A DNA stretch of 64,000 nt from Escherichia coli. GTDB lineage: Bacteria; Pseudomonadota; Gammaproteobacteria; Enterobacterales; Enterobacteriaceae. Positions 45,000 through 45,496 of the stretch are shown in pieces. The stretch is taken from the NCBI RefSeq assembly GCF_045037415.1, contig NZ_CP173438.1; one strand, given 5' to 3'. The stretch's first letter is position 1; each line of letters opens with the position of its first letter. The notes beneath the pieces were generated by a model. It made no database searches and was not told where the DNA came from. It was given only the letters and a program-made list of their open reading frames with translations. The position numbers and the translations under genes were made by a program.

Positions 45000-45076
45000 G
45001 CATCCGTAGCTCAGCTGGATAGAGTACTCGGCTACGAACCGAGCGGTCGGAGGTTCGAATCCTCCCGGATGCACCA
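45000..45076 (+). tRNA. argV: tRNA-Arg (ACG)
   Basis: gcatccgtagctcagctggatagagtactcggctACGaaccgag...gatgcacca, 77 nt; copy 1 of 4 identical. Confidence 0.95.
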
Positions 45077-45140
45077 TCTCTTACTTGATATGGCTTTAGT
45101 GGCGGTATCAAAAAATCTGCAGTAAAGTAAGTTTCCCGAT

Positions 45141-45217
45141 GCATCCGTAGCTCAGCTGGATAGAGTACTCGGCTACGAACCGAGCGGTCGGAGGTTCGAA
45201 TCCTCCCGGATGCACCA
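45141..45217 (+). tRNA. argY: tRNA-Arg (ACG)
   Basis: identical copy 2; gene name assigned by position only. Confidence 0.93.
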
Positions 45218-45279
45218 TCTCTTACTTGATATGGCTTTAGTGGCGGTATCAATATCAGCAGTAAAATAAATTTCCCGAT

Positions 45280-45356
45280 GCATCCGTAGCTCAGCTGGAT
45301 AGAGTACTCGGCTACGAACCGAGCGGTCGGAGGTTCGAATCCTCCCGGATGCACCA
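45280..45356 (+). tRNA. argZ: tRNA-Arg (ACG)
   Basis: identical copy 3; gene name assigned by position only. Confidence 0.93.
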
Positions 45357-45419
45357 TCTCTTACTTGATATGGCTTTAGTAGCGATATCAATATCAGCAG
45401 TAAAATAAATTTTCCCGAT

Positions 45420-45496
45420 GCATCCGTAGCTCAGCTGGATAGAGTACTCGGCTACGAACCGAGCGGTCGGAGGTTCGAATCCTCCCGGATGCACCA
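45420..45496 (+). tRNA. argQ: tRNA-Arg (ACG)
   Basis: identical copy 4; gene name assigned by position only. Confidence 0.93.

Follow-up and report, generated by a model that had tools for sequence, protein, structure and literature searches.

Why an Escherichia coli genome should carry four identical arginine tRNA genes in a row, and why their spacing should be so even, is the question raised by the segment 45000-45496 of the DNA stretch analyzed here (the window, 64,000 nucleotides in length). An initial annotation, made from the sequence alone, had read this segment as four identical tandem tRNA-Arg(ACG) genes in repeat units of about 140 bp. Every claim it made was borne out, but the picture was incomplete, as it left out the tRNA-Ser gene serV, the surrounding operon and, after the last copy, a tRNA-linked repeat (TLR). 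The locus is the E. coli serV-argVYZQ operon, between csrA and yqaB, a textbook tRNA operon that is already known and that appears as one unit, serV-argVYZQ, in PMC10100675. We are highly confident that the segment as a whole is best explained as this stable-RNA operon, carrying a dosage array that is a TLR-depleted derivative of the K-12-type arrangement.

The tRNA-Arg(ACG) genes and their operon

[quoted passage not shown] Sequence comparison returned the same 77-nt sequence for all four, which is also that of the K-12 BW25113 copies (four exact matches in that genome). With the Rfam tRNA model RF00005, each copy scored 67.1 bits against a gathering score of 29, the model being covered from 1 to 71, and ARAGORN and Rfam concur in a canonical cloverleaf. 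The anticodon acg was placed by ARAGORN at position 35 of each gene; it stands within the loop CUACGAA, that of a TadA substrate, read here as ...CGGCUACGAACCG..., and the CCA end is gene-encoded, as the genes finish in CACCA. In tRNA-Arg(ACG), which is tRNA-Arg2, A34 is converted to inosine by TadA, and the tRNA decodes CGU, CGC and CGA.

The tandem array is far beyond chance. Tandem Repeats Finder reported it as a single array (44999-45497; period 139, 3.6 copies, 97% matches, score 929), with units measuring 141, 139 and 140 bp, in line with the unit length first proposed, and spacers of 64, 62 and 63 bp. The spacer motifs quoted in the initial annotation are present, and the pairwise identity among spacers is 90.6%, 86.2% and 95.2%.

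We then considered the neighborhood of the array. The window ORFs and tRNAs, together with RefSeq relatives, place csrA, serV, the tandem tRNA-Arg genes and yqaB in this order on a single strand, with csrA upstream at 44403-44588 and yqaB downstream at 45777-46343. The first gene of the operon is serV, encoding tRNA-Ser(GCT), at 44904..44996 on the plus strand (ARAGORN; Rfam tRNA, 56.8 bits); it ends 3 nt before tRNA-Arg copy 1, and its position is annotated as tRNA-Ser in the RefSeq records of identical genomes. In these, the order is alaS, csrA, tRNA-Ser, 4 x tRNA-Arg, yqaB, yqaA and gshA.

Upstream of serV, a consensus scan returned a candidate operon promoter on the plus strand at 44814..44841, composed of a -35 element TTGACT, a 16-nt spacer, a -10 element TAATAT and the G+C-rich discriminator GTGCGCC, with 9/12 matches. 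Judging from the sequence, this site would function as a promoter. The block GAAAAATTGTTTGACTTATAAGTC.CAGAAAGTAATATGTGCGCCACGCAG upstream of serV is nearly invariant in E. coli, Klebsiella, Citrobacter, Enterobacter, Lelliottia, Pantoea and Brenneria, a conservation that would fit a single, growth-rate-controlled stable-RNA promoter. Along the serV promoter block (44800-44850), an A-rich upstream stretch is followed by TTGACT, 16 nt, TAATAT and GTGCGCC. A scan for terminator-like sites found none inside the array. A weak promoter-like pair, TTGATA-15 nt-TATCAA, was seen in the spacers; it falls below what the scan counted, and internal promoters are conceivable.

The spacers share a common plan, each consisting of a short 3' trailer, a hairpin, an A/U-rich single-stranded stretch and a CCCGAT leader. 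By K-12 alignment and RNA folding, spacer 1 (64 nt) occupies 45077..45140 on the plus strand, with its hairpin at 45085-45111; spacer 2 (62 nt), which is short in K-12 too, occupies 45218..45279, with its hairpin at 45226-45252; and spacer 3 (63 nt) occupies 45357..45419, with its hairpin at 45365-45391. The hairpin is weak when single sequences are folded (z about -1.5 to -1.9). Across genera, 90.4% of cells pair vs 7-64% in slid controls, and 22 cells were changed on both sides in a compensatory manner vs 5.3 in shuffles. The conserved spacer hairpin, a mildly new and descriptive point, is probably a processing signal or an exonuclease barrier. A literature search on RNase E or RNase P processing of serV-argVYZQ found only an operon listing.

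At the other end of the operon, just before yqaB (45777), stands a trailer (45632..45760, plus strand) recognized by its base composition and a terminator-like site: first comes a tract of 104 nt (45632-45735), in which G occurs only 4 times and C 26 times, and then a weak hairpin with a T run (45736-45760). The G-poor tract with the hairpin and T run looks like a Rho-loading region joined to a weak intrinsic terminator, and it is plausible that the operon would end there.

The terminal tRNA-linked repeat

Between copy 4 and the trailer, the window contains a 133-nt TLR (45497..45629, plus strand), identified through Rfam, folding and covariation, which is related to RtT RNA and closes with a repeat of the tRNA-Arg 3' end, CCA included. 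The element begins at the base right after the CCA of copy 4 (45497), in the same orientation, and thus conforms to the definition of a TLR: it lies directly 3' of a tRNA gene, and its last 18-19 nt are the 3' end of that upstream gene. The longest shared substring is a 22-nt direct repeat on the plus strand, ATCCTCCCGGATGCACCATATT, present at 45479-45500, over the end of copy 4, and again at 45612..45633; 18 of the 22 nt (ATCCTCCCGGATGCACCA) are the tRNA-Arg 3' end. TLRs were reportedly described by Egan and Landy in 1978 and by Rudd in 1999, and to our knowledge the function of the family has been unknown since 1978.

A close known counterpart is RtT RNA of the tyrT operon (Rfam RF00391), which likewise follows a tRNA gene in the same orientation, closes with the tRNA 3' end including CCA and has the same core. 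The match to RtT runs through this core, AACGTTGC...GCAACGGCCCGAAGGGCGA...GAGTNATCC, but the window TLR ends as tRNA-Arg, not as tRNA-Tyr, and its 5' half is unrelated to RtT. Its RF00391 score of 23.5-24.9 bits is under the gathering score of 45 (the K-12 TLRs score 31, 29.2 and 22.8 bits), and the window TLR is thus a relative of RtT with a shared core, not an RtT member by the Rfam threshold. The window TLR has in common with TLR and RtT elements a copy of the last 18-22 nt of the tRNA at its end, and such TLRs are iterated in the arrays of K-12 and of other genera.

The TLR has a predicted fold energy of -56.2 kcal/mol (z = -5.2). As default RNAalifold gave only a partial structure, the 5' halves aligning poorly, the single-sequence fold was mapped onto the alignment and pairs were counted. 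In 38 Arg-TLRs from at least 10 genera, a sample picked by a pattern that requires a TLR and that says nothing on species without TLRs, 88% of cells pair, and 95 cells were changed on both sides vs 41 in shuffles. The last 76 nt form a 13-bp helix with an ACCA tail, closing three small hairpins; this helix was unable to covary in the sample, as the search pattern fixed its 3' strand. The modeled fold of these 76 nt would resemble a tRNA acceptor/T-arm minihelix, again a mildly new and descriptive point. In the alignment, Arg-TLRs differ in their 5' halves, of which there are at least two unrelated types, CTTCAGCAATGAAGG...GGCGGTATTAACCGC and GATAACAGCGATGCTGTT...GCGAGTTAATCGC, found together within one array in Klebsiella michiganensis and in Citrobacter amalonaticus, while the 3' core is nearly invariant.

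A different reading of the repeat at 45612-45633 is that it represents the attR of a decayed integrative element in the last tRNA-Arg gene, and not part of a TLR, as integrases often insert at the 3' ends of tRNA genes, leaving 15-25 nt directly repeated, and the repeat here measures 22 nt. We consider this very unlikely: just 111 nt lie between the repeats, and these form the conserved, covarying RNA structure; the element is iterated after successive tRNA copies in many genera and has its core in common with RtT; and none of the genomes sampled showed an island in the interval from the last tRNA to yqaB. Moreover, the related elements after other tRNA and 5S genes end in the 3' end of their own upstream gene, as is the case for all 22 TLRs at ten K-12 loci, 19 of them in tRNA operons (PMC8144298).

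For a TLR, the reading preferred here, the literature offers a partial parallel. No function is known for any tRNA-operon TLR (PMC8144298), but the same concept, namely co-transcription with a stable RNA, a 3'-end copy and processing out of the precursor, applies to rrA, rrB and rrF, TLRs that follow 5S rRNA and, in vitro, bind both Hfq and CsrA (PMC8144298). Unlike tRNA-operon TLRs, these lie between two rrn terminators and have GGA motifs in their loops. It was also observed that csrA lies directly upstream of the operon, while TLRs of rrn operons reportedly bind CsrA in vitro (PMC8144298); the 19 tRNA-operon TLRs, however, score below 0.01 in a CsrA-binding predictor (PMC8144298). This adjacency is probably a coincidence.

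Array architecture in E. coli and other genera

To place the window in a wider frame, its array was compared with that of K-12, where serV-argVYZQ has the same flanks (csrA and yqaB), the same promoter, serV and four identical tRNA-Arg genes, with spacers that are orthologous by position and a terminal TLR 97% identical to the window's. The two differ in the gaps between tRNA-Arg genes, which are 198, 62 and 198 bp in K-12 BW25113 vs 64, 62 and 63 bp in the window: K-12 has a TLR after copies 1 (134 nt), 3 (135 nt) and 4, whereas the window has the terminal TLR only. By alignment, the internal K-12 TLRs sit at the 5' end of spacers 1 and 3. The window thus differs from K-12 by two clean indels of 134-135 bp, bounded by 20-bp direct repeats, AATCCTCCCGGATGCACCAT, and the remaining window spacer sequence matches K-12 position by position. 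The direct repeat found around the terminal TLR is the same that flanks both TLRs that K-12 has and the window is without.

The direction of this change is suggested by K-12 TLR1, which shows 91-92% identity to the first TLR of Klebsiella grimontii and Citrobacter amalonaticus, and 86% to K-12 TLR3. Since it is nearer to TLRs of other genera than to one of its own array, the internal TLR appears to predate E. coli, and its absence from the window would represent a loss. The array of the window would owe its regularity to the loss of both internal TLRs, so that the even 140-bp arrangement is, on the strength of these alignments, likely a derived, TLR-depleted form. This TLR-depleted architecture of the window's lineage is a mildly new, descriptive result.

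In other genera, sampled by a pattern that requires a TLR, 15 species from Enterobacter, Klebsiella, Citrobacter, Pantoea, Brenneria, Lelliottia and others carry serV with 2-4 (mostly 4) copies of the 77-nt tRNA behind it, with four copies at 11/15 non-E. coli loci where serV is present. The tRNA-Arg sequence is unchanged from E. coli to Pantoea, and a TLR follows most tRNA copies in the arrays of Klebsiella, Citrobacter, Lelliottia, Brenneria and Pantoea.

Within E. coli, the 77-nt tRNA-Arg is present at 99% identity or more in 5,425 of 5,426 complete genomes, where this query found 21,500 places, with a median of 4 and a range of 1-9 per genome. Among 60 evenly spaced genomes, 52 (~87%) have 4 copies, 3 have 3 copies, 2 have 5, and single genomes have 2 and 6. 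Copy number does vary between strains, as the initial annotation had anticipated, but this variation is modest; it was read directly from intact arrays of 3 copies (EC04) and 5 copies (E5) with normal flanks. Units were counted by the 77-nt tRNA, as the 62-nt spacer is too short and variable for 28-mer seeding: a count by that spacer (megablast), which found 2/3 spacers in the window's genotype and a median of 1 per genome, was discarded. Rows of the whole-locus search were also excluded from copy counts, as its rule for joining repeated pieces lists K-12 as 'x1' or 'x3'.

The arrays that were read out can be written with T for tRNA and r for TLR. EC04 has 3 copies as TTTr (gaps 62/63 bp), and E5 has 5 copies as TTTTTr (gaps 64/62/62/63 bp); the 3-copy array is without exactly unit 1, and the unit gained in the 5-copy array is of the 2/3 type. 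Strain mip270_05 has 3 copies as TTrTr (gaps 63/198 bp), THO-010 has 4 copies as TrTTrTr (gaps 199/62/198 bp), and O157 AR-0427 has 4 copies as TTTTr (gaps 64/62/102 bp). Gains and losses thus involve whole units, and direct repeats mark the exact limits of the TLR indels. This is what a recombination-prone array, as it had been called at the outset, would be expected to leave behind, and recombination between repeats would be the simplest account of both the unit gains and losses and the TLR deletions. The 102-bp third spacer of O157 AR-0427 (2278-2379 of locus L006) joins the first ~38 nt of a TLR to a normal spacer; this remnant has a variant first hairpin, TCATCAGTGATGATGG, and does not derive from the direct-repeat deletion seen elsewhere.

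A search with the TLR found 1 to 5 places per complete E. coli genome, with a median of 2. The window query was covered to at least 80% in 1,239 genomes, the terminal TLR reached at least 99% identity in 977, and a single TLR was present in every sampled row at 99% identity or more. The array form of the window occurs in about one fifth of complete E. coli genomes; its matches include O25:H4, NC101 and ATCC 25922, which belong to phylogroup B2. This fifth of sequenced E. coli, being without internal TLRs, provides ready-made natural variants for the study of TLR function.

Two further explanations bear on the regularity and the number of copies. One is that the evenness of the 140-bp array is an artefact, the assembly having collapsed or mis-expanded a repeat. 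Assembly is difficult at this locus, and some 'complete' assemblies are broken or scrambled here (XL10-gold and IH5), but a segment of 1,211 bp including unique flanks (44580-45790) shows 100% identity across five or more complete genomes that are independent of one another (e.g., SK1144, EH01-18-04-A and REF1) and is matched at 99% or more by 939 genomes. Moreover, the position-specific spacer differences match K-12, and a collapse would have erased them, so that an artefact is extremely improbable. The second is that the four copies are a recent, strain-specific amplification, an adaptive gain in copy number. Unit gain does occur, as in the 5-copy array of E5, and the tRNA copies are identical; but four is the mode both in E. 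coli (~87% of the sample) and in other genera (11/15 loci), the spacer variants are orthologous by position in the window strain, K-12 and O157, and the identity of the tRNA from E. coli to Pantoea is explained by purifying selection alone. We therefore give a recent amplification hardly any credence, and retain an old four-copy array that has lost its internal TLRs.

The 6 places of XL10-gold and the 2 places of IH5 were rejected as real copy numbers, as these are scrambled or fragment-joined assemblies: at the breaks, one has serV followed by yaiP, and in the other a lone tRNA-Arg stands before a partial pdeC. At this locus, extreme copy numbers are in part a product of assembly and should be distrusted.

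Gene dosage, proposed working of the operon and antisense reading frames

The reason for having several copies is best addressed by published genetics. The genes argV, argY, argZ and argQ are redundant copies for tRNA-Arg2 (10.1101/2021.07.14.452415), a TadA substrate whose editing is documented (PMC13170351). Deletion of argYZQ lowered tRNA-Arg2 16-fold and reproduced the rich-medium growth defect of a TadA mutant, while duplication of the operon raised tRNA-Arg2 2.4-fold (PMC13170351). Given these effects, it is established that the array exists for the dosage of the major arginine tRNA. The 16-fold drop on losing three of four genes exceeds simple proportionality, and may reflect effects of position or context, possibly of TLRs or internal signals. 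In addition, the fact that four copies are strongly modal in E. coli and usual in other genera points to selection on dosage. A similar case is glyVXY, another operon of identical tRNA genes arranged head-to-tail, whose copy number differs by about one between strains (PMC4539685), although it concerns another tRNA at a locus other than argVYZQ.

Based on these results, a working scheme can be proposed for the operon. The strong promoter at 44814-44841 probably drives a single precursor containing tRNA-Ser(GCT), four copies of tRNA-Arg(ACG) and the terminal TLR, in which the four copies would serve the dosage of the major arginine tRNA. This precursor would be cleaved within the spacers, with RNase P presumably making the 5' ends, and the 3' ends would be trimmed back to the encoded CCA. 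At the DNA level, unequal homologous recombination or replication slippage between direct repeats could occasionally add or remove a whole unit, and the same process could delete a TLR between two copies of the tRNA 3' end. The array of the window (tRNA-tRNA-tRNA-tRNA-TLR) may thus have derived from the K-12-type array (tRNA-TLR-tRNA-tRNA-TLR-tRNA-TLR) by losing both internal TLRs. In this scheme, we infer the single transcript, the enzymes that process it, the site of termination and that TLRs were lost and not gained. The supply of the tRNA for the most used arginine codons is set by this array, which retains four copies from E. coli to Pantoea.

It is also conceivable that having or not having internal TLRs is a lineage-specific polymorphism with a function, and not a neutral loss of repeats, although we regard this as unlikely. 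A TLR could be a competitor for RNase P, RNase E or 3'-trimming enzymes, could guide them, or could yield a stable tRNA-sized RNA. If this were true, TLR-depleted strains may process the precursor differently or be without a TLR-derived RNA, and would represent natural knock-outs.

The repeats also account for spurious ORF calls, as had been noted initially. Two such ORFs from the ORF list lie on the minus strand, one of 216 aa running through serV and three tRNA-Arg copies (44707..45357) and one of 113 aa (45312-45653), and both are repeated translations of antisense tRNA. That the longer one might be a real protein-coding gene is suggested by its length, its ATG start and the fact that gene finders called it on at least 1,000 contigs, where its exact sequence is found in the protein collection. 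We give this practically no chance, as the ORF is wholly antisense to tRNA genes with repeated antisense translations, has no Pfam match and is absent from the RefSeq annotation of identical or related genomes. Moreover, its length follows the architecture of the array, with the members of its cluster (249 in total) ranging from 79 to 216 aa; the only name given, on 2 of the 40 members examined, is 'hypothetical protein'. Being antisense translations of tRNA, the 216-aa and 113-aa ORFs should be suppressed in annotation in favor of serV, four tRNA-Arg genes and the TLR.

Other signals of the antisense strand were found as well. The Rfam hits Plastid-ycf2 and Plastid-psbI-rps4 were rejected as tRNA antisense artefacts far below threshold; the former appears on the minus strand of every copy (45000-45494), with 33 bits against a gathering score of 65.7. 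Similarly, on some orthologous copies ARAGORN reported an overlapping antisense 'tRNA-Arg(tcg)' (L009 3210-3282; L018 5247-5324 and 5645-5722; L019 8132-8208; L020 956-1032), an artefact of the tRNA antisense strand.
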